A program made the position numbers and the translations under genes. Below, piece after piece: positions 14,910-48,636 of a stretch of DNA of 50,477 bases. The stretch lies in the IMG/VR virus record IMGVR_UViG_2695420874_000004, one strand, 5' to 3'. The notes below the pieces were generated by a model, which had not been told where the DNA came from, did not search any database, and saw only the letters and a program-made list of their open reading frames with translations. The first letter of the stretch is position 1; each line of letters starts with the position of its first letter. Source of the DNA: a virus. Taxonomy: Duplodnaviria > Heunggongvirae > Uroviricota > Caudoviricetes.

Positions 14910-14957
14910 GAGAGCGATCCTTGCACAACCGGGTGGAGTGATGTAATACAGAGCGTA

Positions 14958-14975
14958 TGTATGGAGAACCACACA
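14958..14975 (-). promoter_or_regulatory. Possible Ogr-type late promoter dyad upstream of V
   Basis: TGTATGGAGAACCACACA is a TGT-N12-ACA dyad; spacing to the V start is short, so the assignment is tentative. Confidence 0.3.
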
Positions 14976-15004
14976 AAAGAGAAACAATTTCTAAGGTATT
15001 TAAG

Positions 15005-15871
15005 ATGACACAAATCGCAATTTATGGATTTAATTTCACTAAAAAAATCACATTTGACGGTGGTGAGTTAACTCCTATTTTCAGTTCATGGAGTGAGTTA
15101 AAAAAAAATGGCTGGGCTAATGATAGGTACATCCTCACTGGTTTTTTCAAACCAAACTCGAATAACTACGCCACTCAACAGCAGCTTATTTTTGATTTAC
15201 AAGCAGTTCTTAGTTTTATTGAACAAAAAAATGTAATCATTTCAGGAGAACTTGAAAATGATGAAACCCCTTTCAATTTCAAACCATCTCTACCCAAAAA
15301 GCTTGACAAAAAAAGAGATAAGGGTGCGGGCATTATCATCATGGAAGATTATTTTGCACCAAACAGCCGAGAAAATTTTATTTGCTTAGCCATGGAAAAA
15401 CTAAATAGTAAAGCCATGCTAAAACAAGATGCCTTTAGAACATCATTTTTTAAATCAATGCTAGCTTTCCGCGACTCAATAAATTATATCGACGTCAGAT
15501 ATTATTTATTATTCTCGGCACTAGAAGCACTTTGCAGATTTATTAAAAATGACTACTCCCCTGCCAAAACACCACAAATAATTACTCAGGTTTTAAAAGA
15601 ATATGGTTTTAATGTCGAAAAAACAGGACATACATTAGCTCAAAGAAACATTATGCATTACTGCAAACTCCGTCACTCGCTGTTCCACAATGGTAAATAC
15701 ATTGCCTATCTTGATGAAAAAAACTCAGATGGCACAATTGAAATTCAAGATTACTCATCAAATTTGAATTTACTGGTGCCACTTGTACTAATGAAATTCA
15801 TAGGATTTGATGACAATTATATAAACTGGGACTCATGGATTGATAGGAATCCATTTATCAGTAAAAAGTAA
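15005..15871 (+). CDS. Hypothetical cargo protein (289 aa) in the S/V (P2 orf30) variable locus
   Basis: Clean AT-rich ORF on the opposite strand to the flanking tail genes, with AAGG ribosome-binding-like sequence upstream of the ATG at 15005; no motif I recognise. Confidence 0.7.
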   Translation: MTQIAIYGFNFTKKITFDGGELTPIFSSWSELKKNGWANDRYILTGFFKPNSNNYATQQQLIFDLQAVLSFIEQKNVIISGELENDETPFNFKPSLPKKLDKKRDKGAGIIIMEDYFAPNSRENFICLAMEKLNSKAMLKQDAFRTSFFKSMLAFRDSINYIDVRYYLLFSALEALCRFIKNDYSPAKTPQIITQVLKEYGFNVEKTGHTLAQRNIMHYCKLRHSLFHNGKYIAYLDEKNSDGTIEIQDYSSNLNLLVPLVLMKFIGFDDNYINWDSWIDRNPFISKK

Positions 15872-24752: not shown

Positions 24753-25442
24753 TCATATGAGACGACCGTCTGGACTTCTGTTACCTAAATGTAATTCACA
24801 GAGTATCCACCTAATCACATCAGGTCGAATTAACCCAGCTACAAAAACCGAATTCCAATTATTTTTACCTTTATGTTTTTCATCCAACAGCAACAACTCG
24901 CGAGTCAACAACTCATATACATCGCTATAAGTAGAAAGACTCTTATTCAGTCCTCTAATAACAAGCTCAGGATATAAGTAAAACGACTCCCATTGTTCAG
25001 ACAAATACCCCTTAATATTATTCTTGATAACAACATTATCAAGATGATACTTAACATTGTTATATTCTGGTGACATTGGGTCAATTATGATTTTTACATC
25101 AATTGTAGGTGTTCGCCCTAATTTAGAAAAATTAGCACATATTAATCTTTGTTTTAATATATTATCAAAATATGGATGCAGCATCCGATGGCCTGCAGAA
25201 TTAGCTATAGTAGTACTTTTGAAAGTATTACATTTGCAAGCAGGAACCAAATTCTTAGTGAATAAAGAAAATTCTGGATAGTTTTCCTTGGGTAAAACAT
25301 GATCCAAAGTCCCGCTATGCATTGAACCACACATTGGACATAGAGAGTTAGAATTAGCTGCTCTTATATCATCAATTATAGATAAACACTTTGCGGGATT
25401 GTTATAATAATATCTCAAAGCTTCAGCAATATTGTTACTCAA
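24753..25442 (-). CDS. HNH endonuclease-like protein (candidate Septu PtuB-like effector)
   Basis: CPMCGSMHSGTLDHVLPKENYPEF...NLVPACKCN has the C-x2-C / DH / N / C-x-C-N arrangement of HNH nucleases; AT-rich; no ATG at the 5' end (probable TTG start). Confidence 0.7.
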   Translation of the reverse strand: MSNNIAEALRYYYNNPAKCLSIIDDIRAANSNSLCPMCGSMHSGTLDHVLPKENYPEFSLFTKNLVPACKCNTFKSTTIANSAGHRMLHPYFDNILKQRLICANFSKLGRTPTIDVKIIIDPMSPEYNNVKYHLDNVVIKNNIKGYLSEQWESFYLYPELVIRGLNKSLSTYSDVYELLTRELLLLDEKHKGKNNWNSVFVAGLIRPDVIRWILCELHLGNRSPDGRLI

Positions 25443-25616
25443 TACGCCACAAGAATTGACATTAAGATACCCTTTATTCTTTATGTACGATCTATATGCA
25501 TTAAGTATAAATGTATCCTGTTCATTCAGAACAGAATGATGTTTTAATCTCTTATTTGCAGATAGTTTTTAAATGCAGAATAATCTTTAAAAACAGGTCT
25601 TTTTAATTTATTCATT

Positions 25617-27266
25617 TCAATTGCCCATTTCATTTCTCAACGCAGTTAATACATTAAGTGATAAGTCCTCGCTATATTTAGATTCAACATCATCCCAAGA
25701 CATATTCTTTGCAATTATATTATTTTTTACTTTATTTAAAATTTGAGTTGGTTCACTCTCACCGAAAACAAAATATGAGATATTTCCTATATTCGCCCCA
25801 AAAGTACTCAATCTCGGTTTTTCGCTAACAATTACCCCATCATCTCGTCTTCTGAGTATTGTCACTTGCTCCTTAAAAACCTCCCGAACAAGATAAACCG
25901 AATGCGTTGCTATGATAGCTGAAGAGCCTGTCTTTTCTAATAAATTATCAAGCAATGCCATAAATTTATTAATAAATGAAGGATGGAGATGTGTTTCTGG
26001 CTCATCTATTAATAGAAGAGTCCCATTCTCAATATACAAACAGACTTGTACACAAAACTTAATAAACGATATTTCCCCACTACTCAAAGGATAACATTTA
26101 TTTTCAATAAGCCTCAAAGGCTCGCCAGAGAGAATAATTTCAGAATATAATGATAGTCTGGATTCTTCGCCTCGAGAATTAAGCTCATTTAATTTAACAA
26201 ATGGTGAATTTTCACCGTTACATTTGATTACTAAATCGTTGTTACTATTTAGAACACTCAGTGCATCAACAAATATATTCCACCTTTGATTATAGCCGAT
26301 AGCGTCGTTACTCCTCGCTAGTTGCACTATTAAATCATTCAAGTTTAATTTGGATTTTGATTCACGATTTAAAGTCAATCTTTTGTACCATATCAATGAT
26401 TTTATTCTTTTATCGGTTGGAAATGAACACTTACTTTCATTTGTTGGAGAAAAAGCAATGAGCCTACTAATTTGAATTCGTTCTTCAATGCTCACACCGT
26501 TAGAATCAACTACAGCCACCAAATTATCCTTTCCTTTAATCGCAGCCAATGCGATTTCTCTAAGCGTTTGGCTTTTTCCTACACCATTCTCGCCTATAAT
26601 TATGGAAATTCTTTTTGGTAAATCATGCTCGTGATCAAAATTAAAAACATAAGATACATCTTCTTCATTAACTTTATTCGAATAGCTAATCTTGATGTGC
26701 TGTGATAAATTACCCAACTCCTCATATTGAATACCGGAAAGAACTGTTCCTGCATTTTTGAAAGTAAAATACGACTCAGACTCTCTAATGAAAGATTTAT
26801 TAAAGATATCAGAAGAGATTGCTTTTTTCCTCAAATTCTCTGCACTAGCGTCACTTTTCTTAGAAACAACATCATTAATGAAATTTAATATATATTTGGA
26901 TTCATTCACCCCAAAAAATCTTACTAGTCTTCGATAATTATTCATATCCTGAAGCATGACAAAATAATCATTAAACCCCTCATCCTTTAAATTAGATTCT
27001 TCCTTTTTCTTCACTCGCCTTATCAGTTCTGCTTTTCCATTTCGTTCCTCCTCTGAATTCAAAAAACCAATATAACCATTCAGTGAAATTATATCCTTAC
27101 ACTCTTTTTTATTAAAAATAGATATTTCGACTCTACTCAAATATCCAAAATCATTCCAATCGCTTCTTGATGGGACTATTTTTATATAATTACCAGAATC
27201 AGATATCTGTTGATTATTTGTAATTAAAAAATATAAACTATAATTTTTATTTTTCTTGACTAACAT
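25617..27266 (-). CDS. ABC/AAA15-type ATPase (candidate Septu PtuA-like) with about 200-aa N-terminal extension
   Basis: Walker A IIIGENGVGKSQTL, ABC-signature-like LSSGE, Walker B/D-loop LLLIDEPETHLHP; AT-rich. Confidence 0.8.
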   Translation of the reverse strand: MLVKKNKNYSLYFLITNNQQISDSGNYIKIVPSRSDWNDFGYLSRVEISIFNKKECKDIISLNGYIGFLNSEEERNGKAELIRRVKKKEESNLKDEGFNDYFVMLQDMNNYRRLVRFFGVNESKYILNFINDVVSKKSDASAENLRKKAISSDIFNKSFIRESESYFTFKNAGTVLSGIQYEELGNLSQHIKISYSNKVNEEDVSYVFNFDHEHDLPKRISIIIGENGVGKSQTLREIALAAIKGKDNLVAVVDSNGVSIEERIQISRLIAFSPTNESKCSFPTDKRIKSLIWYKRLTLNRESKSKLNLNDLIVQLARSNDAIGYNQRWNIFVDALSVLNSNNDLVIKCNGENSPFVKLNELNSRGEESRLSLYSEIILSGEPLRLIENKCYPLSSGEISFIKFCVQVCLYIENGTLLLIDEPETHLHPSFINKFMALLDNLLEKTGSSAIIATHSVYLVREVFKEQVTILRRRDDGVIVSEKPRLSTFGANIGNISYFVFGESEPTQILNKVKNNIIAKNMSWDDVESKYSEDLSLNVLTALRNEMGN

Positions 27267-35264: not shown

Positions 35265-36296
35265 ATGGAAAAAAGCATTAGCACATTTATGTACCTATCC
35301 GTTTTATTAGGTTGTATATTCTTATTTATAAAATATCGACTTTATGTTCTCGATCATAGAAGCTTGTTCCAACAACCCTTGTTCTGGGCTGCAATAGGCC
35401 TACCTTTATTCACCAGCCTTTACTTTGGTTCTTTTGTCTGGATAGATAAAATACACTCTTTTAGTCTTACAAGTCACGGTTATGAGAGATTTTTAGATAT
35501 CTCGAAATTACCATTACTCATCCTTGCATCTGCAGTACCTTTAGTTTCAATAGTAAACAACCTACACAGAACCAAACAAACAGAAAAACAGATCTCAGAG
35601 GCAGAAAGGAAAAACAGGGTAGATTTATATTACAACCACATGAAATTTCATCTTGATTTATATAAAAAAATCGAAGGGAAAAGAATAGGCAGCTACTACC
35701 CGGTTCAGGAAGCTCAAGCTGAAGCAATCTACCAACATTTTATAAAACATCCACAAGAACTATATAGAAAAGCATACCCACAATCTACGCCTGATGATTC
35801 TCAACAATTAGATATTAATGAGCAATTTGTTATTGATTTACACAAATGTTGGGTAGAAATCAACGCAAGACTCAAGCAATTATCCGAGAGTGAAAATCAA
35901 ATACATCCTACAGAGGAACTTTGCACAACAAAGATGAGAATATTTGTAGGAGTTATGATTATTTATGAAAAAACTTGTAAACTGTTGTGTTTAGGTGGAT
36001 TTCATTATAAAAAGTCATTTGTAATAAATGATAGTTATAATAAATACCAAGTTTATTCACCATTTTATGATTTTGGCACTCTGTACGAATCACTGCAATC
36101 CTTAGAAGAGATAACCTACGCCTTCTTGGATACTTGCAGAAATGAAGTGGTAAACTTGTACTTCCCTATAGAAGATAAAATTTTGATATATGGTGAAGGG
36201 ATTCTAGAGAATTGGTTCAAGTATTCTCAGTTCTTGATCACTATAGCTTATCAACCCGCCAAGATGTCTCGCTTACCCCAGCTGAGACGCGATTGA
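35265..36296 (+). CDS. Hypothetical membrane-anchored cargo protein between int and attR
   Basis: 343-aa AT-rich ORF starting 2 bp after the int stop; two N-terminal hydrophobic helices (LSVLLGCIFLFI, LFWAAIGLPLFTSLYFGSFVW) and a large soluble C-terminal part. Confidence 0.65.
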   Translation: MEKSISTFMYLSVLLGCIFLFIKYRLYVLDHRSLFQQPLFWAAIGLPLFTSLYFGSFVWIDKIHSFSLTSHGYERFLDISKLPLLILASAVPLVSIVNNLHRTKQTEKQISEAERKNRVDLYYNHMKFHLDLYKKIEGKRIGSYYPVQEAQAEAIYQHFIKHPQELYRKAYPQSTPDDSQQLDINEQFVIDLHKCWVEINARLKQLSESENQIHPTEELCTTKMRIFVGVMIIYEKTCKLLCLGGFHYKKSFVINDSYNKYQVYSPFYDFGTLYESLQSLEEITYAFLDTCRNEVVNLYFPIEDKILIYGEGILENWFKYSQFLITIAYQPAKMSRLPQLRRD

Positions 36297-36412: not shown

Positions 36413-36457
36413 ATGTAGGAATTTCGGACGCGGGTTCAACTCCCGCCAGCTCCACCA
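36413..36457. repeat. attR of the P2-like prophage / attL of the downstream island: partial ssrA 3' end
   Basis: Exact 45-bp copy of 1016..1060. Confidence 0.75.
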
Positions 36458-36582
36458 ATTTTTGATATATTGAAGTTCAGTGAAGTCTATCAAGCCCGCA
36501 TGGAACCAGCCTTGCGGGCTTTTTTACGTCTATAGTAGTCTACCGAGAATTGCTAGAATCTACTCGTTATGGCACCCTTTTT

Positions 36583-36627
36583 GGGACCCAACACAAAGGG
36601 TCCAAAACATGAGGGTCCCAAACATGG
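36583..36627. repeat. Three tandem 15-bp imperfect repeats overlapping the island integrase start codon
   Basis: GGGACCCAACACAAA / GGGTCCAAAACATGA / GGGTCCCAAACATGG in direct succession; the third contains the int ATG. Confidence 0.4.
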
Positions 36628-37853
36628 CAAAAATCGCTAAGAAGCTCACTGACACTGAAATCAAAAGCACCAAACCTGCCGAGAAAGAGGTTAACCTTTT
36701 TGACGGCGATGGTTTGCTCCTGCGAATCGCCCCCTTAGCGAAGGGAGGAAAGAAAAATTGGTATTTCAGATATGCAGTGCCTGTGACCAAAAAGCGAACT
36801 AAGGTGAGCTTAGGAACCTATCCTCACCTTACACTTGCGAAGGCACGAGCTTTACGTGATGAGTACTTGTCGTTGCTTGCAAATGGTATAGACCCACAAG
36901 TTCATAACACCCACAAAGCCAATGCCCTTAAGGATGCAACGGAACATACATTTCAAGCAGTAGCCAAGAAGTGGCTTGATGAGAAAGTCAAAACGTCAGG
37001 CATCTCCCAGGATCATGCTAACGACATCTGGCGAAGCCTAGAGAGAAATATCTTTCCAACGTTGGGTGATACCCCCATTAAGGAGATTCGCCCTAAAATG
37101 CTTAAACAGCATTTAGACCCCATAGAAAAACGAGGTGTCCTTGAAACACTTCGCCGCGTCATATCCCGCCTGAATGAAATTTTCCGCTATGCAGCAACAG
37201 AAGAACTCATAGAATTCAATCCGGCTGACAACCTGGGGCAACGGTTCAGCAAGCCAAAAAAACAGAATATGCCAGCATTACCCCCTTCCGAACTCCCCCG
37301 CTTCCTGGTTGCTCTAAACAATGCTTCTATCCGTTTAGAAACAAGGCTACTGATTGAGTGGCAACTTCTCACATGGGTTCGCCCTGGTGAAGCTGTTCGC
37401 ACAAGATGGTCAGATATTGATATAGAAACCAGCATGTGGAACATCCCGGCGGAGTTTATGAAAATGAAGAAGCCTCACAAAGTTCCACTGAGCAAAGAAT
37501 CTTTGCGAGTCTTGGATTCAATGAAAGCCATCAGCGGGCATAGAGAGTGGGTTTTTCCCAGTATCAAAGCTCCACTCAATCACATGCATGAACAAACAGC
37601 TAATGCGGCTATAATCCGTATGGGCTTCGGAGGTGAGCTTGTAGCTCATGGTATGCGATCAATCGCTAGAACGGCGGCTGAGGAGTGTGGCAAGTTTAGA
37701 ACTGATGTCTTAGAAGCCGCCCTTGCCCACTCGAAAAAAGATGAAATAATTGCAGCCTACAATCGTGCAGAGTATCTCACAGAACGTGTGGTTCTCATGC
37801 AATGGTGGAGTGACTATGTTTCGTCTCAAAAATACAAAGTTATTGCCGCATAA
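36624..37853 (+). CDS. P4-type tyrosine integrase (CP4-57 IntA-like)
   Basis: N-terminal LTDTEIKSTKP...GDGLLLRIAP...WYFRY arm-binding region and blocks DIWRSLERNIFP, QKKNMPAL, AHGMRSIARTA, EAALAH, AYNRAEYL, MQWWSDYV shared with IntA as I recall it. Confidence 0.9.
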   Translation: MAKIAKKLTDTEIKSTKPAEKEVNLFDGDGLLLRIAPLAKGGKKNWYFRYAVPVTKKRTKVSLGTYPHLTLAKARALRDEYLSLLANGIDPQVHNTHKANALKDATEHTFQAVAKKWLDEKVKTSGISQDHANDIWRSLERNIFPTLGDTPIKEIRPKMLKQHLDPIEKRGVLETLRRVISRLNEIFRYAATEELIEFNPADNLGQRFSKPKKQNMPALPPSELPRFLVALNNASIRLETRLLIEWQLLTWVRPGEAVRTRWSDIDIETSMWNIPAEFMKMKKPHKVPLSKESLRVLDSMKAISGHREWVFPSIKAPLNHMHEQTANAAIIRMGFGGELVAHGMRSIARTAAEECGKFRTDVLEAALAHSKKDEIIAAYNRAEYLTERVVLMQWWSDYVSSQKYKVIAA

Positions 37854-41471: not shown

Positions 41472-42523
41472 TCATGGTTTTATATAGCCTAAATAAACCA
41501 AGAAGTATACTTACACAACGACCTTCACGCCGAAGAAGCTGTCAGATACGCCAGCAACCAAAGCATTGCGTTTAAGAGTCAGTCATTGATACGAAGGGAT
41601 AACTGCGTATCAGCAGCCGGACATTGAGTCGAATAAAGGCTGGTAGAGAGGGACAGTTCTGTGTCACCGGGAGATTAGTCAGAAACATCAGCGGCAGAAC
41701 AGATGAACCAGCAATTGGTAGTGTACAGAAAACTCTCCAGTATATAATTATTCAACTTAACACTAAAAAAAATCACATAGTTAATATCATAATTTTTCTT
41801 TGGTCTACTTATGCGAGAGATATTGTGGCTTCAACCTGGTATTAGGAGTCGTTTCAGATAAAAGATGTTCTTCGATTCGACTGGACTTGGTAATAGCAAT
41901 AAGTAATCGTGAATATTGAAGGACGAAAGGCTACTTCAAAACAAAGTAACCTTTCCAATATTCCCATATATGGGACAAGTGGCACATTAACTGCACATAG
42001 TGCAGGATACATATGACATAAAACTTTTTATTTATGGCATACATTAAGAATAACTTTTATTTTACGAATGTCAATAGGCTCTTGCTTAATACTTTTAAAA
42101 TAATTAATTGATTTTTTATTATAGCTTCGCTTGTACAAGCGAAGATCCTATTGTTCTTGAATGAATAATGCCAATTATAAAAGAAGCAAGGGCTAACCCT
42201 ACGAAGCCGCTGCGCTTGTTTCTTTGGGTTCCCCTTGCTTTTCTTCCCTTCGGTTAGAAAAGAAAATCCAGCCCAGTTTATCAACTATCTACAGTATTCC
42301 CACTAAAGAGTAACCGCCACTTTATACTCCGTTTGTGAGCTGAGGCTACTGTAGCATTTTTGGGTTTAAATTTTCTATCATTACCAGTTGTTGTGTCGGG
42401 ATAAAAATATTTTCTCGCATCCAACCATAAAGATATCAGATTTGCTATCATCATCACTTCACATAATGAAACTTTTTAAGTAGGCCTAAAATACAAGGCC
42501 TACTTAATAGCCGGAGATAGTTA

Positions 42524-43429
42524 TTATTTAGATGCTAAAATAGTATTTTTATTGAATTTTTCATCAGCATCTGTAAGCTTTTTCATTATTAAAGCAGGGG
42601 CTATATCCTGAAGCTCCGTAGATTTTATGAAAAAATAATTACAAAGGTAAATTATATTATTAAGATTAATTGGTATATCAATATTATAATCTAACATTAA
42701 CGATAACAAACGATCTCTGTCAATTCTATAAAACTTTTTACCAAGCTCTTTCTCATTAATTATTGAAATTATCTTTTCATCAAGCTTATCGTCCATTCTC
42801 AATCTTAATTTATTTCTTAGCATAGCGGACCATGCGCTTGACTTATAATTTCTATATGCTAAATCCTCAAATAACTTCATTATTCCCCAATCAGATGTTT
42901 CCAAAGAGGCGTAAATTCCATTCAGCGCGCGACTAAGGTCATTATGCTCAACCCAATCCTCTTTGCACTTATAGCGTAGATCATGCTCAACTTCATGCCA
43001 TCCTTCAGATAAAATAGTTCTAAATTGGACTTCAAAAGTAGTATCAATATAAGAATATTTCTTTAATAAGACACTATCATTTGATAATACTTCTGGTAAC
43101 TTAAAGACGTAATTGCATCGAGTTGCCGCAAAGAGATTAGCCGTGGTTTCGTCTACGGTTTTAGATTCAATTTCGAATAATTTCTCCAGTGTTTTTTGAG
43201 CAATAAATAAATCATCAGGAAAATATAATATTATCCTAACCCCAAATAAGTCTTGAATTTTTTTACCATCCTCTGAGTATTTATTAGGCTCTTTTTCATA
43301 TTTCTTAATTATTGAGCTTTCTGATTTTGTCCTCGAAAAAAAACGATAAAGTAATCCAATACGATTAAGTTCATCTTCTATATCTTTTTGCAAACTTTGA
43401 ATAATTCGCAATTCATTCCCGTTATACAT
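42524..43429 (-). CDS. RelA/SpoT-like nucleotidyltransferase (small alarmone synthetase / toxSAS-like)
   Basis: Three synthetase-fold motifs in order: SRTKSESSIIKK (GRxKS-type), DLFGVRIILYF (D-x-x-G-x-R), FEVQFRTILSEGWHEVEHDLRYK (E-x-Q-x-R-T...H...Y-K); about 140-aa C-terminal extension. Confidence 0.7.
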   Translation of the reverse strand: MYNGNELRIIQSLQKDIEDELNRIGLLYRFFSRTKSESSIIKKYEKEPNKYSEDGKKIQDLFGVRIILYFPDDLFIAQKTLEKLFEIESKTVDETTANLFAATRCNYVFKLPEVLSNDSVLLKKYSYIDTTFEVQFRTILSEGWHEVEHDLRYKCKEDWVEHNDLSRALNGIYASLETSDWGIMKLFEDLAYRNYKSSAWSAMLRNKLRLRMDDKLDEKIISIINEKELGKKFYRIDRDRLLSLMLDYNIDIPINLNNIIYLCNYFFIKSTELQDIAPALIMKKLTDADEKFNKNTILASK

Positions 43430-45534
43430 CAGAAATTCCTCCCAAGAATTGCTTTAATCTCTGATATTCTTGCCATGTTAAGTTCAAGGAACGAACGCTT
43501 GTCTGGCGTAAGTAAAAGACCGTCTTTCCTCAATTTATCTAAAGAATGGAGTATTTCACTTAACTGAAATTGATTGTTGTTAGAACATAAGCCTTTTATA
43601 GGCCGATGCTTATGATAGCTAACACTCCCTCTGGGACAGAACTTCTCTAAGATGTAAATATCACAATCTGTAATATCGTGATCATTTTCACTGTTTATCT
43701 CGACAGATTTTTTATTAATAGCATCATTGTCACATTCACATCCCAAAAAATAAATATCTTCCCTACCACTTAATTCGTTAAAACTACAATCTATAAAAGA
43801 ACAGTTCACGAATGTAACGTTTTTATAATTACCACAGGTAAATATGCTGCTAAAAAACGAACAATCAACAAAGATAGTATCATGTATTATATTTATATCG
43901 CCTAAAGAAAGTTTTGATATAGACAATTGCTCAACACTATCATTTTTTAAATCTAATGGAACTTTTCCTATAAGCAAATGACTATAAAGGATTTTATCAT
44001 TACCTGACATAAAATATAAAGCAAACTCTAAGCTATGCCAAAGTAATTCTTTTTCATCATCGATCCTCGGCATATAAGATTGCACTGCTGGTTCTATAAA
44101 ACGTTTATCACCAATCCATTCATTTGACTTATCATTAATAATATTTTCAGAAACAAAATTACCAAGAACAAATTCATTAACAAATCCAATACCTTGGTTT
44201 TCTGAGCCTGACCGATCTAATAGAGCATGCGATGCTAATTTATTAACTAATTCGTCAGTAGTTGGTCTTTCATCTACAGTATAAAGCTTTCTTGTAGCCT
44301 CCAAGAGTTGTTGATTCTTTTCAGTTATGACTAACGATATATACTCTCTAGACTCAGATGTGTAGTTACCCTCGACCATGTCGTCAGCTATTATTTTTAG
44401 TATAGTATATTGATCTTCAATAGACATTAATAAATCTTGTCTTTTTCTTTCTCGCTCAAGCATTGAATCAAAATACTTCCTCACTATAGTTGTTGGGTCG
44501 CTTATAACTTTATTAAAGTCGGTGTCGTCGATGCATCTTAGAAATGATAGCAGTACAGGGTTTGATAATTTGTTAAGAGGAAATCCTGTCGATGAAATTT
44601 CATCTAAACGTTGACCTGGAAGCCAGTCTTCAATTTGTGGTTCATGAATTCTTATTCTTATCACATCAAAATCTTCTTGATGTGATGCTATCCACTGATG
44701 GAATTCATCTCCGTCAAATATAGCTGTTCTTCGAGTTGTCAAAACCACTTTTGCACTATCAGTTAGAAGCTCACTTATTGTTTCCAGCATTGGCTCTGTT
44801 TTTTCATAATTATTTTCAATTCCGTTTGTACTTTCATGCAATAGTTCATCAAACCCGTCAAGTATAACTGGTACATTTCCTGCTCTTATTTCATTCCTTA
44901 CTAAGGCTGAGCTTAACAAAGGAAAACTTCTATCAATTTCATCTAATAGTACATACCTGAATATTTTTGCTTGCCTATTCCTTGATAGTTCTGAAAATAA
45001 TGGTATTTTCCCTATATTGTTAACTATAATCTCCCTCAATAATTCATACGCCGTGCAAGTCTTTCCAAAACCGGCTGCAGCCTCAATCAAAAACAGAATT
45101 GGACGCCTATGTTGTATTCTCTCTAATATTTCCGTAACAACACTAGCTTCGCCAATAACACCATTTAAGTAATATTTTGAATTTATGTAGGAATAAGTTG
45201 CAGTAGGTGAGTGAATTTTTACAATTGAATCTGTGAAAGTATTATAATCTTTAATCAACCTTTCTTTAGTTGAATCGACGCTAAAGAAGCCATTAAATAA
45301 TTCCTTATGTGCTTCTTCATAAGACTGATATTTTTTAATTTGACATGCATAACCTAACTGCCTATATTCTTCAAAGGTTTGATTTACATTAACCTCATTA
45401 TTTAGTGGAAGTATGTCCGCGTTATGGTAGTGCCCTGTTTTAATAGAATATACAGCAATACTTTCGTTACCTGTATTTTCTTCAGTAAAACCAAACCTTT
45501 TATATATCTCTGTAAGTTTGCTTTTTCGTAACAT
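43429..45534 (-). CDS. NACHT-type STAND NTPase with repeat-rich C-terminal region
   Basis: Walker A LIEAAAGFGKTCTA and NACHT-type Walker B VPVILDGFDELLH; C-terminal Cys/Phe-rich repeat-like region; start set to the ATG at 45532..45534, which has a strong AGGAGGT Shine-Dalgarno 7 nt upstream. Confidence 0.8.
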   Translation of the reverse strand: MLRKSKLTEIYKRFGFTEENTGNESIAVYSIKTGHYHNADILPLNNEVNVNQTFEEYRQLGYACQIKKYQSYEEAHKELFNGFFSVDSTKERLIKDYNTFTDSIVKIHSPTATYSYINSKYYLNGVIGEASVVTEILERIQHRRPILFLIEAAAGFGKTCTAYELLREIIVNNIGKIPLFSELSRNRQAKIFRYVLLDEIDRSFPLLSSALVRNEIRAGNVPVILDGFDELLHESTNGIENNYEKTEPMLETISELLTDSAKVVLTTRRTAIFDGDEFHQWIASHQEDFDVIRIRIHEPQIEDWLPGQRLDEISSTGFPLNKLSNPVLLSFLRCIDDTDFNKVISDPTTIVRKYFDSMLERERKRQDLLMSIEDQYTILKIIADDMVEGNYTSESREYISLVITEKNQQLLEATRKLYTVDERPTTDELVNKLASHALLDRSGSENQGIGFVNEFVLGNFVSENIINDKSNEWIGDKRFIEPAVQSYMPRIDDEKELLWHSLEFALYFMSGNDKILYSHLLIGKVPLDLKNDSVEQLSISKLSLGDINIIHDTIFVDCSFFSSIFTCGNYKNVTFVNCSFIDCSFNELSGREDIYFLGCECDNDAINKKSVEINSENDHDITDCDIYILEKFCPRGSVSYHKHRPIKGLCSNNNQFQLSEILHSLDKLRKDGLLLTPDKRSFLELNMARISEIKAILGRNF

Positions 45535-46373
45535 TAAACTCACCTCCTGATATTTTTCGCAATGATGCTATAGTCGCTGTATGAACTTTTAATATAATAT
45601 TACAAAAACCATCTACATAGCTACCGCCTAAGCAATAATAGCTATGTAGAGATTATCTGTAAGAGAACAGTTCAACGGTTACGTGCACGTTATGACATCG
45701 TTCTAACTTCATGGGGTGCTCAGTAACAGAACTTTTAAGCCATTCTTGCTCGCTGAACATGCAGTCATACCTATCACAAGCAGTACAACCATTACTTAGC
45801 AGACCTCTGCTTCTTGTTCCAAAAGGAACGTAAACCAGATGTTAGAGTTAACAAAACTGAAAGCCACTGCCCCCCAAATCTCCAAGTCAAACATTAGAGA
45901 CTTTAAGTGAGCTCAGCCCAGATTATGCATTCTAATCAATTTCCAAATAATCAATCGGGCTAAGCCGTGGTGGTCATCGCGCCAATCCCCATAATGAAGG
46001 ATACATCTTGGCTGTATCATCTTCCTTACAGCTGCGTTTCAACATGTGCTGAACAACACTCAAGTTAATGTAAATGAGCCAGTGAATACAACATCTGTTT
46101 CAAATCACTTTGAAGTTTTCTTCACTTAATGTGTACGCCAAAATTATCCGGATAAACATAGAGTAACGGTCGACCGGGATTACAATCAACCAGTTTCATC
46201 TCTAGTAAGCGATATTCTTATGGCGGCAGCGGAATGTTCTGACAACCCCACTGAGGCGGTGCTACAGAATCTTATCGAAGCCAAACATCAGCTACGTTTC
46301 CCTAGATGTTAAAATCAGTAGTCGCAGGGCCAATGCTAATGATCCACACATTGACCGTGAAGGGGCCTTTCAG

Positions 46374-46646
46374 GTGGGTACGACTGCATTCCAAGTGACC
46401 ACCGCACCTATGGAGAAATTGATTTCACACTGTATCAAAATCAAACGCGCAGGCTACAGGCCGGTCATCCTAACTCTTGAAAGCAAGGTCATTGCAGCAC
46501 GCCAGCTGGCTGATAACGTTGGTATGTCTGAACTGATAGCCATCCAGGCAGCTGAAACTTTCATTGGTAACAATATTGAAGAGATTGCTATTTATGACGG
46601 CGATAAAATCCGTGAGAGTCTCGCAAGATTGATACATCTCTTATGA
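46374..46646 (+). CDS. Hypothetical protein
   Basis: 90-aa ORF of moderate GC in an otherwise non-coding stretch; no recognisable motif. Confidence 0.35.
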   Translation: MGTTAFQVTTAPMEKLISHCIKIKRAGYRPVILTLESKVIAARQLADNVGMSELIAIQAAETFIGNNIEEIAIYDGDKIRESLARLIHLL

Positions 46647-47227: not shown

Positions 47228-47668
47228 ATGAAAAAACAAAACTATTCAACCCTGACAAGTTACCTATCTAAAACAAAAAAGAATACAGATCTCTACCGTC
47301 TGTATAACCCTCACTTTTCAATATTCTGTAAAAATAGCATTGAAGATCATGTTTTTTATCTTAATTATTTTTCCAGACATATGGTGACGGAAAGAAATAT
47401 TCTGACCATATTTGCTATCCATACCTTTTTCTCTTATAGCATGGAAAAAAAAGACACCATAAAAGCTTTTACCCGTTTTCTTAAAGAGGAGAATCACGAT
47501 ACTTTCTATCAGTCATTTTCTTTTCGTGGCTGCAATATCATTTACACAAACAAAAAAGGCGAAGTGAAAGAGATCTCATGGTTTTCTTTTTCACGGATCT
47601 ATGACGAGATCATTAAGATAAAAGAATATGAATACAACAATAATACCTGGCACAAAACGACCGCTTAA
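47228..47668 (+). CDS. Hypothetical protein (AT-rich)
   Basis: 146-aa ORF with AGGAG upstream of the ATG; immediately upstream of the ankyrin gene. Confidence 0.5.
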   Translation: MKKQNYSTLTSYLSKTKKNTDLYRLYNPHFSIFCKNSIEDHVFYLNYFSRHMVTERNILTIFAIHTFFSYSMEKKDTIKAFTRFLKEENHDTFYQSFSFRGCNIIYTNKKGEVKEISWFSFSRIYDEIIKIKEYEYNNNTWHKTTA

Positions 47669-47682
47669 AAAGGAGAACGCCC

Positions 47683-48636
47683 ATGAGTAACTATACAGAA
47701 GATAATTTATTTGACAGCAAAACTAAAAAAGACGTCCAGAATTGCATTGCTGCAGGCATTGACATTAACACACTTAATGAACACGGTGAAAACGCCCTTT
47801 TCGGTTGCGACAGTATCGGGGCTTTAAAAGCCATGATTGAAGCAGGCATAGCGCTGAACCATACAGATTGTTATGGTAATAATGCCCTGTTTAGCAGAAA
47901 AAGCCCACGTGCAGTGAGGCTATTGATAAAGTCAGGTATTAACGTTCACCACAAAAATAATAAAGGCCAGTCCTGTCTTCACTGGCAGCGCTACGCCATA
48001 GATTGTGCGGAACTCCTCATAAACGCGGGCATTGATATCCACAGCACAGATAACGAAGGACAAACGCTTCTTTATGACCTCCTCGATCATGACGTCTTTG
48101 ATTACTGGGTAAATAAAGGGTGTGACATAAACCACAGAGATTATGGTGGCAAAGCGGTGCTGGATCTTCCGACTGACAACGAGTGGTGGATATATGATTT
48201 CAGTATTAATGCCCTCAAACGCCATGTTGATAGAATAGACAGCACGCCAGTATTATTTAAACATGTTTCAACTGAGGCTTTGCCTCTAATTGCTTTGCTT
48301 CATGAAAAAGGGCGTAATATCCTTATCGCTGAACACTGTTCCTTCGCATTATATGTCAAAAACATGAAGTACTTCTTTACCTCACTGAAAAAATATACCG
48401 ATATCAGTCATGTTCAGTTTTATAATTGTTATCATGATAAACATATTGGTATCTACACCGGCATAGAAAGTGTGAAATGGTTCATTCGAAATGGTATCCG
48501 AATGGACGACGATATACTCAGACAGCGTTCTGACTCCGATAAGATTTTTTCTTATATCGCAGCAAGAGAGAAAAAAGACCTGTTAAAAGAAATGAAGCCA
48601 GAGATCCCCCGTTCATCTGTACGAAAAAGACTCTAA
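47683..48636 (+). CDS. Ankyrin-repeat protein
   Basis: Repeated 33-aa units of pattern G-x-N/T-A/L-L...A...G...I/V...H/N...D...G (e.g. HGENALFGCDSIGALKAMIEAGIALNHTDCYGNNALF), at least four repeats, followed by an unrelated C-terminal region. Confidence 0.7.
   Translation: MSNYTEDNLFDSKTKKDVQNCIAAGIDINTLNEHGENALFGCDSIGALKAMIEAGIALNHTDCYGNNALFSRKSPRAVRLLIKSGINVHHKNNKGQSCLHWQRYAIDCAELLINAGIDIHSTDNEGQTLLYDLLDHDVFDYWVNKGCDINHRDYGGKAVLDLPTDNEWWIYDFSINALKRHVDRIDSTPVLFKHVSTEALPLIALLHEKGRNILIAEHCSFALYVKNMKYFFTSLKKYTDISHVQFYNCYHDKHIGIYTGIESVKWFIRNGIRMDDDILRQRSDSDKIFSYIAAREKKDLLKEMKPEIPRSSVRKRL

Follow-up and report, generated by a model that had tools for sequence, protein, structure and literature searches.

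What do an NLR-like nucleoside triphosphatase (NTPase) and a RelA/SpoT-type enzyme do together when their genes overlap in a single operon? The question is raised by two adjacent genes, here called gene A and gene B, in a 50,477-nt stretch of DNA recorded as IMG/VR virus entry IMGVR_UViG_2695420874_000004, the whole of which is referred to as the window. An initial annotation, made from the letters alone, had read the two genes as a candidate anti-phage pair of a NACHT protein and a RelA/SpoT-like partner; as a candidate, this reading is supported here by profile hidden Markov model (HMM) matches, by the predicted folds, by the conservation of the pairing and by the lack of a match to any named system. 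The pair is most likely a two-gene, horizontally mobile conflict cassette, directed against phages, that acts through abortive infection or growth arrest. On balance, the probable division of labour is that the product of gene A (A) is the sensor and switch, and that the product of gene B (B) is an A-activated effector which pyrophosphorylates a nucleotide or tRNA and so arrests the infected cell.

The gene pair

43429..45534, minus strand: gene A, proposed sensor/switch, a NACHT/STAND NTPase of 701 residues (RefSeq WP_000944877.1, 'NACHT domain-containing protein')
42524..43429, minus strand: gene B, proposed effector, a RelA/SpoT-family pyrophosphokinase of 301 residues (RefSeq WP_000282312.1)
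43427..43431, minus strand: TGATG junction, in which the A of the gene A stop codon TGA is also the A of the gene B start codon ATG, a 1-nt overlap (ttcTGATGtat)
45543..45548, minus strand: Shine–Dalgarno sequence AGGAGG of gene A, read directly from the sequence

Both minus-strand open reading frames (ORFs) described in the initial annotation were recovered, gene B with its 301 residues. The longest ORF of gene A (43429–45543, minus strand) opens with a GTG that falls within the Shine–Dalgarno sequence, and an ATG at 45534, which is the start used by RefSeq, stands 8 nt past this sequence; since the GTG lies inside the Shine–Dalgarno sequence and RefSeq uses the ATG, gene A is taken to encode 701 residues, and the 702 residues given initially are corrected. 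The overlap of stop and start in TGATG was confirmed by reading the junction, and it most likely reflects translational coupling, by which B would be made in fixed proportion to A.

Gene A, a predicted NLR-like switch protein

45166..45519, minus strand: NA-iREase2 domain, gene A residues 6–123 (Pfam PF22723, E = 1.4e-33, full profile length); proposed adaptor
44095..45150, minus strand: NACHT NTPase module, gene A residues ~129–480, from invariant alignment columns, Pfam and structural matches
43735..43947, minus strand: pentapeptide-repeat-like β-helix, gene A residues ~530–600, short and Cys/Phe-rich; candidate ligand-sensing surface
43432..43677, minus strand: small α/β C-terminal domain, gene A residues ~620–701, with the conserved block YxLEKFxPxGxxxxHKHRP...FLELN...LGR

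The initial annotation recognized the NTPase module of A and overlooked the domain that precedes it, a restriction-endonuclease-like fold that Pfam names 'NACHT-associated inactive restriction endonuclease 2' (NA-iREase2) and that was matched in all 36 of the gene A homologues collected here (45–89% identity). In the alignment of these 36 homologues, which also underlies the residue-level statements on the NTPase module, the acidic residue at the (D/E)xK position of the N-terminal domain is not conserved; within the domain, Asp D40 is invariant, and close to the nuclease motif position most homologues have a basic residue.

The NTPase module contains a Walker A motif, AAAGFGKTC, in which G155, G157, K158 and T159 are invariant, a NACHT-type Walker B motif, VILDGFDELL, with an invariant D226-G-F-D-E230, an invariant TTRRT motif and, in the predicted winged-helix part, an invariant H436. 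The Walker A (GFGKT) and NACHT-type Walker B (ILDGFDEL) motifs picked out initially are thereby confirmed. The Pfam NACHT profile (PF05729) scores 17.5 bits on A, under its gathering cut-off of 26.7, and is found at E ≤ 0.01 in 35 of the 36 family members, with a best value of 1.5e-6. The best matches of the AlphaFold2 model (predicted local distance difference test score, pLDDT, 83.3) in a Foldseek search of the PDB are NAIP5 (3.6e-7), NLRC4 and the NACHT domain of NLRP3, followed by ORC/Cdc6, Dark and CED-4; the template-modelling scores are low (0.2–0.33) because A is a multi-domain protein. The motifs, the weak but systematic Pfam matches and the NLR folds at the head of the structural matches together bear out the NACHT assignment, and on this evidence from sequence and model A is predicted to be an NLR-like STAND/NACHT switch protein.

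The C-terminus of A had been described as Cys/Phe-rich and repeat-like. Its repeat-like part is a short pentapeptide-like β-helix: Pentapeptide_4 matches A weakly (E = 0.003), with pentapeptide matches at residues 554–600, 23 of the 36 family members give a match, the model places β-strands at residues 533–597, and the gene A profile matches McbG-like and Qnr chains at E values of 3e-4 to 6e-3. The small domain at the very C-terminus gave nothing in a Pfam search even at E ≤ 10, and the Pfam domain search found no recognizable catalytic effector domain anywhere in A.

Gene B, a RelA/SpoT-type enzyme

42950..43429, minus strand: SAS-like synthetase domain, gene B residues 1–160, with all ATP-binding and catalytic motifs, from HMM alignments to RelQ and RelP
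42527..42949, minus strand: helical C-terminal domain, gene B residues 161–301 (isoelectric point, pI, 8.04; 21 acidic and 22 basic residues)

The Pfam RelA_SpoT profile matches B at 56.8 bits against a cut-off of 27 (E = 3.2e-15), over profile positions 1–112 of 113. The motifs are laid out as R33/K35/S39/K43, Q59-D60-x-x-G63-x-R65, and E133-x-Q135-x-R137-T138 followed by H145, H149 and Y153-K154, so that the three ordered synthetase motifs reported initially are present and are invariant in 34 homologues; in these and in 85 sequences from genome loci, R33, K35, S39, K43, D60, G63, R65, E133, Q135, R137, T138, H149, Y153 and K154 are invariant or nearly so. The assignment to RelA/SpoT, which had rested on motifs, is upheld by the Pfam match above the gathering score and by the SAS fold, and both in sequence and in fold B is nearest to the housekeeping enzymes RelP and RelQ. 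B is, judging by these residues, a RelA/SpoT-type enzyme with intact catalytic motifs, predicted to transfer pyrophosphate from ATP.

The acceptor loop of B is remodelled, with F100-x-[A/P]-x-R104-x-N106 in place of the canonical GYRSxH. Opposite the stacking Tyr, one of two HMM alignments places a variable residue and the other the invariant F100, and residues 94–103 of the loop have a pLDDT below 50 in the model. The C-terminal extension of about 140 residues that had been noted on B was confirmed as residues 161–301, which are helical; a search of Pfam (E ≤ 10) and of the PDB returned nothing for these residues, and the structural matches of B end at its catalytic core.

Conservation of the pair

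Homologue searches yielded 2808 relatives of B and 1628 of A, many of them on the same contigs and with identities that drop in parallel. A locus scan with one genome per species gave 80 loci with a B relative at 37–99% identity, and in 59 of these an A relative ends just upstream of B; the 59 paired loci come from Gamma-, Beta-, Delta- and Epsilonproteobacteria, Bacteroidota, Firmicutes and one cyanobacterium, which amounts to at least five phyla. Overlaps of 4 nt (18) or 1 nt (17) were found at 35 of 61 A/B junctions, and all but one of the junctions lie within −22 to +17 nt. Individual look-ups of six homologues (four of A and two of B, from Pseudomonas aeruginosa, Vibrio parahaemolyticus, Idiomarina, Pseudomonas syringae, a metagenomic lineage and Morganellaceae) each showed an NA-iREase2–NACHT gene followed directly by a RelA_SpoT gene, and the surrounding genes were unrelated each time. 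The co-occurrence that the initial annotation had singled out for checking is therefore found across phyla, in adjacency as well as in overlap, and A and B are a conserved unit.

Elsewhere, the flanks of the pair include, as seen from family counts, integrases, type I, III and IV restriction–modification genes, AbiEii, PbeA and Abi_2. The pair is also present on a Klebsiella pneumoniae IncF plasmid and on a Pantoea megaplasmid. On the former, the IncFIB/IncFII conjugative plasmid p1_020151, a 704-residue protein and its RelA/SpoT partner are encoded close to the replication region, and an IS3 element and two small genes lie between the pair and pifC, the regulator of the F-plasmid phage-exclusion locus. 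That the system might be borne by phages or satellites was considered and rejected on account of its near-absence from phage records and viral contigs.

Gene B without gene A

At 21 of the 80 loci no relative of A was found. These loci fall into three clades of gut anaerobes (Prevotella/Bacteroidaceae, Oscillospiraceae and Blautia), each of which is nested among paired clades in a rough neighbour-joining tree of B. The initial claim of a NACHT and RelA/SpoT pairing thus stands in that the pair is widely kept, and it is to be qualified in that homologues of B also occur without a NACHT partner in these three clades. On the simplest reading of the tree, the pairing would be ancestral in the B family and the partner would have been lost or replaced at least three times.

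Two of the clades have features of their own. In the Oscillospiraceae/Clostridiales loci L062, L067, L068, L070 and L071, a conserved protein of ~165 residues with a GCGW...H pattern (for example L067, 5404–5901) ends 10–50 nt before B; it gave no match in Pfam, NCBIfam or PHROG, and it may be an alternative partner of the B-type enzyme. The Blautia loci L072–L076, L079–L082 and L087 contain a stand-alone B homologue of 324–330 residues with all catalytic motifs, which has, at the loci with enough upstream sequence (L072–L076, L080 and L082), a conserved set of neighbours that encode thioredoxin, thioredoxin reductase, CutC and a P-type ATPase. The arrangement points to a form of the enzyme that is non-mobile and domesticated.

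Within E. coli, the coding region is matched in 66 genomes, and decay of the pair was surveyed in 60 of them:

About 29 genomes: both genes annotated as intact
About 10 genomes: gene A split by a frameshift
2 genomes: gene A interrupted by IS2 or IS3
6 genomes: gene A truncated at its 5' end, with three different end-points
About 4 genomes: gene B split, gene A intact

A full-length annotated gene B accompanies a damaged gene A in at least 15 of the 60 genomes, through at least six distinct events. A 1-bp frameshift in gene A is common to a group of chicken E. coli isolates (decay was seen at loci L090, L093 and L094 as well as in the genome survey). Strains thus tolerate B when A is defective, as would be expected of an enzyme dependent on activation and not of a toxin that has to be neutralized constantly, and the pattern of gene damage argues against A being an essential antitoxin.

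The same observations make it unlikely that the pair is a toxin–antitoxin or addiction module, in which B would be a constitutively toxic toxSAS, A would be a large antitoxin and the pair would stabilize the island or plasmid, with defence arising only through loss of A. An overlapping bicistron with the upstream gene first is a hallmark used to find toxSAS toxin–antitoxin pairs, the cassette sits on mobile elements beside partition-like ParB/RepB genes and on IncF and Pantoea plasmids, and the catalytic site of B is intact, all of which such a module would accommodate. However, inactivation of A by frameshift, insertion sequence or 5' deletion beside a full-length B, the persistence of B without A in three clades and the rarity of the reverse damage, a split B with an intact A, all run counter to it, and A, as a 701-residue NTPase with sensor-like repeats, is unlike the known toxSAS antitoxins.

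Genomic context and regulatory sites

698–1060: ssrA tmRNA gene
36432..36457, plus strand: exact 26-nt copy of the ssrA 3' end (attachment, att, site), the left edge of the island; two exact copies, with 0 expected by chance
36480..37853, plus strand: island tyrosine integrase, directly after the att copy (Pfam Arm-DNA-bind_3, Phage_int_M and Phage_integrase)

The DNA of the window is chromosomal and from E. coli: of 5426 complete genomes of this species, 76 have the 3.3-kb operon region at 99% identity or more, always in the chromosome, and the pair is present in 66–76 (~1%), depending on whether the query includes the flanks. A P2-like prophage lies between ssrA and the 26-nt copy of its 3' end, and the spacing of 35 kb between the gene and this exact copy implies two mobile elements in tandem, the P2-like prophage and then the island with the operon. 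The island comprises, in order, the tyrosine integrase, a serine recombinase, two ParB/RepB-like genes, the A/B operon, a DUF4928 remnant, an ankyrin protein and a relaxase; from this gene content and the ssrA site, the pair rides an integrative, mobilizable element at a classical integration hotspot. The initial description of an AT-rich operon in an integrase-bearing island is accurate, the G+C content being 31.9% for the operon and 53.6% for positions 1–24000 of the window.

45635..45663, minus strand: promoter-like site CTTACA-17-TATTAT, from a consensus scan (9 of 12 positions matched; a consensus match only)
45612..45650: perfect 12-bp inverted repeat with a 15-nt spacer, a possible operator that overlaps the −10 region; lineage-specific
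42478..42505, minus strand: hairpin with a 10-bp stem (AAGTAGGCCT / AGGCCTACTT) and an 8-nt loop, beginning 19 nt past the gene B stop codon, read directly from the sequence

The inverted repeat upstream of the operon (arms TCTACATAGCTA at 45639–45650 and TAGCTATGTAGA at 45612–45623) was correctly noted in the initial annotation and is longer than expected by chance, shuffles of the 200-nt upstream region giving repeats of 6 bp on average and 8 bp at most. It was rejected as a conserved regulatory element, being above chance here and missing from orthologous loci: no above-chance repeat was found upstream of A in 48 of 53 distinct orthologous locus types, none was common to different lineages, and the 12-bp repeat is confined to the E. 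coli/Enterobacter copies. The repeat is also unlikely to be the terminator of an upstream gene, because a promoter-like −10 sequence lies within it; it may be a local operator, outside the conserved system. The hairpin 3' of gene B has no U-tract, and a terminator scan did not call it.

Between the operon and the relaxase, the DUF4928 remnant (46374–46646, plus strand) retains only the C-terminal 87 residues of its family (Pfam, 4e-34) and is followed by a 146-residue protein without a family match and by a 317-residue ankyrin-repeat protein (47228–48636, plus strand); the three are decayed or unknown cargo. The variable region of the P2-like prophage (24753–27266, minus strand) holds a two-gene candidate defence pair of 31–32% G+C, made up of a 549-residue AAA_21/PtuA-like ATPase (25617–27266; PADLOC PDC-M01A, 2e-55) and a 229-residue partner (24753–25442; PDC-M01B, 9e-32). 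A 343-residue ORF (35265–36296, plus strand) directly follows the P2-type integrase just before the ssrA att copy, and its sole match is phrog_17460 (unknown function), with nothing in Pfam, PADLOC or NCBIfam; this position is taken up in E. coli strain 300709 by an 'anti-phage dCTP deaminase', and it looks like a cargo or defence hotspot with an uncharacterized gene. A further prophage ORF of 304 residues (14957–15871, plus strand; 34% G+C), with phrog_4373 (unknown function) as its sole match, is probably an accessory (moron) gene.

Comparison with known systems

No PADLOC model and no NCBIfam anti-phage model fits the pair, and A has no PADLOC match at E ≤ 1. The matches of A to HalA (5.5e-4) and Qnr reflect pentapeptide repeats only, and AbiGI (0.0045) and PDC-S33 (8e-5) are weak partial matches that lead to no named system. 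A literature search, of a kind that misses most subscription-journal papers, turned up no report of an operon with a NACHT gene and a RelA/SpoT gene. Whether the pair maps to an already named system had been put forward as a check, and neither the PADLOC and NCBIfam systems nor any searchable paper covers it.

The closest relatives of A in the literature are bacterial NACHT proteins (bNACHT). Table S1 of Kibby et al. (bioRxiv 10.1101/2022.07.19.500537) lists the architecture 'NA-iREase2+NACHT+Pentapeptide' in bNACHT clade 15, with entries from V. cholerae (WP_142737953.1) and Paenibacillus daejeonensis (WP_020618620.1). Clade 15 shares with A the domain order, the NACHT Walker A and B motifs and the NLR-like fold, and the P. 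daejeonensis locus has the two-gene arrangement found here. Protection of E. coli against phage is reported there for bNACHT proteins that belong to other clades, and the clade-15 members that were assayed, bNACHT09 (TIR), 34 and 69, have other N-termini; a RelA/SpoT partner was not found in those parts of the preprint text and supplement that were searched. The bNACHTs that have been tested consist in essence of one gene, whose product has a fused effector or a short domain at its C-terminus, whereas here an inactive REase-like N-terminus is combined with a separate RelA/SpoT gene. The initial statement that the NTPase lacks a fused effector holds in that no active effector domain is present, and it is to be corrected in that the N-terminus is a catalogued domain, NA-iREase2, in an architecture already placed in clade 15. 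Avs/AVAST proteins are STAND proteins with a TPR-type sensor and a fused nuclease, protease or other effector, in contrast to A, with its pentapeptide-like candidate sensor region, no active effector domain and no PADLOC match.

For B, the nearest parallel in operon design is type I PANGU (bioRxiv 10.64898/2026.04.06.716658), in which the nucleoid-associated Pag1A activates Pag1B, a GRel toxSAS with its own C-terminal domain. Both systems are bicistronic, with a sensor (in our case a proposed one) and a RelA/SpoT-family effector, but the PANGU partner is a YejK-like DNA-clamping protein and the partner here is an NA-iREase2–NACHT protein, and the C-terminal domain of Pag1B is acidic and DNA-mimicking whereas that of B has a pI of 8.04. 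The initial annotation could not place a split sensor with an alarmone-synthetase-like effector; no description of the NACHT version was found in the literature that could be searched, but a sensor split from a toxSAS has this precedent. The toxSAS enzymes are neutralized by antitoxins, and CapRel (PDB 7ZTB), a tRNA pyrophosphokinase, is a fused toxSAS–antitoxin, one polypeptide that is inhibited by, and senses through, its own C-terminal domain; here a separate NTPase is proposed for sensing, and the C-terminal domain of B does not align with that of CapRel (150 residues aligned). What sets B apart from housekeeping RelP and RelQ is its additional C-terminal domain of 140 residues, an altered acceptor loop that lacks GYRSxH, its pairing with a NACHT protein and a distribution that is mobile and patchy.

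Fusions of similar parts are known from eukaryotes. RelA/SpoT domains are a minor class of fungal NLR effector domains (review, PMC10197012), and Table S1 of Kibby et al. (10.1101/2022.07.19.500537) contains a 'Tox-RelA+NACHT+Pentapeptide+BetaPropeller' protein of the foraminiferan Reticulomyxa. These proteins combine NACHT with a RelA/SpoT-type domain as found here, and that of Reticulomyxa also has a pentapeptide repeat; they are single polypeptides from other NACHT clades (clade 10), likened to the pair by their domain labels.

Proposed mechanism and alternatives

In the mechanism that we propose, the C-terminal pentapeptide β-helix of A and its small terminal domain would detect an infection cue, upon which the NACHT module would exchange its nucleotide and oligomerize, and the inactive-REase domains thus clustered at the N-termini would form an output platform. 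B, translationally coupled to A, would remain inactive until A switches it on, and would then transfer pyrophosphate from ATP either to a purine nucleotide, so that an alarmone resembling (p)ppGpp/(p)ppApp is made and ATP is drained, or to the 3' end of tRNA; either activity would arrest the infected cell. That A is an activator and not an antitoxin is suggested by the at least 15 E. coli genomes with a broken A and an intact B and by the three A-less clades, and that B is the effector is suggested by the lack of an enzymatic effector domain in A and by the proven toxic or defence members of the family of B (CapRel and PANGU Pag1B). A bolder version, which we consider possible and somewhat doubtful, is that here, for the first time in a bacterial immune pair, a separate RelA/SpoT enzyme is under the control of an NLR-type NACHT sensor, as a split counterpart of the fungal and foraminiferan fusions, that the inactive REase is a new kind of adaptor by which an effector is recruited or activated in trans, and that the product of B, given its remodelled acceptor loop, is something other than classical (p)ppGpp, namely another pyrophosphorylated nucleotide or RNA end.

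Several observations weigh against a sensor–effector defence pair. Among the PADLOC models none fits A, and the one match of B is weak and partial (PDC-S33, 8e-5). The acceptor and product of B are not predictable, since its loop is unlike GYRSxH, the HMM alignments disagree and the model has low confidence at this point. The stand-alone B homologues of Blautia lie in a housekeeping context, and where A is broken B is perhaps poorly expressed, which weakens the argument that it is tolerated without A. The association with defence islands is modest, many of the flanking genes in other genomes being housekeeping genes, and the pair is nearly missing from phages, with no full-length match in 50,697 phage records and five loci in 2.9 million viral contigs, four of which are the same E. 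coli copy.

Some of these points would be expected if the pair were instead a physiological regulator, in which B would serve stress adaptation as an accessory alarmone synthetase and would be tuned by A, a STAND-type regulator that responds to a metabolic signal. The proximity of B to housekeeping RelP/RelQ in sequence and fold, the conserved housekeeping neighbourhoods of the Blautia homologues, the ordinary metabolic genes that flank many paired loci and the near-absence of the pair from phages all agree with such a role. It is nevertheless improbable in view of the occurrence of the pair in ~1% of E. coli genomes, its foreign G+C content and island location, its frequent pseudogenization and its patchy spread over five phyla; in addition, A belongs to the bNACHT assemblage, whose tested members are anti-phage, and some flanks contain restriction–modification and Abi genes and integrases.

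Least likely, and in our judgement remote, is the reverse wiring, as in CBASS or Thoeris, in which B would make a nucleotide messenger on infection and A would be its receptor and effector through the REase-like N-terminus: RelA/SpoT enzymes do produce diffusible nucleotides, the fold at the N-terminus of A is that of a nuclease, in which D40 is invariant and a residue close to the motif position is mostly basic, and Kibby et al. place 'alarmone synthetases' among nucleotide-signal-generating domains. Against it stand the classification of NA-iREase2 as inactive by Pfam, the poor conservation of the acidic (D/E)xK residue, the lack in A of any known sensor domain for nucleotide messengers and the lack in B of a recognizable sensor domain other than its helical tail; STAND proteins, too, are the sensors in all characterized cases.

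Conclusions

In conclusion, what is new in this locus is a NACHT partner with a trans-encoded RelA/SpoT protein as its proposed effector, bNACHT sensors and toxSAS effectors having each been known separately. As a 3-kb operon with its own predicted promoter and an E. coli host, the pair is directly testable. If the proposed roles are confirmed, a widespread cassette, native to E. coli and with homologues numbering in the thousands across five or more phyla, would be added to the catalogue of bacterial immunity, and it would show an NLR-like switch driving an unfused effector and assign a role to the 'inactive REase' domain found ahead of many NACHT modules in bacteria. Toxic RelA/SpoT enzymes would also gain a further mode of control, beyond the antitoxin-neutralized toxSAS, the fused CapRel and the nucleoid-sensing PANGU, and the RelA/SpoT-bearing NLRs of fungi and protists, which are poorly understood, would have a tractable model in bacteria.

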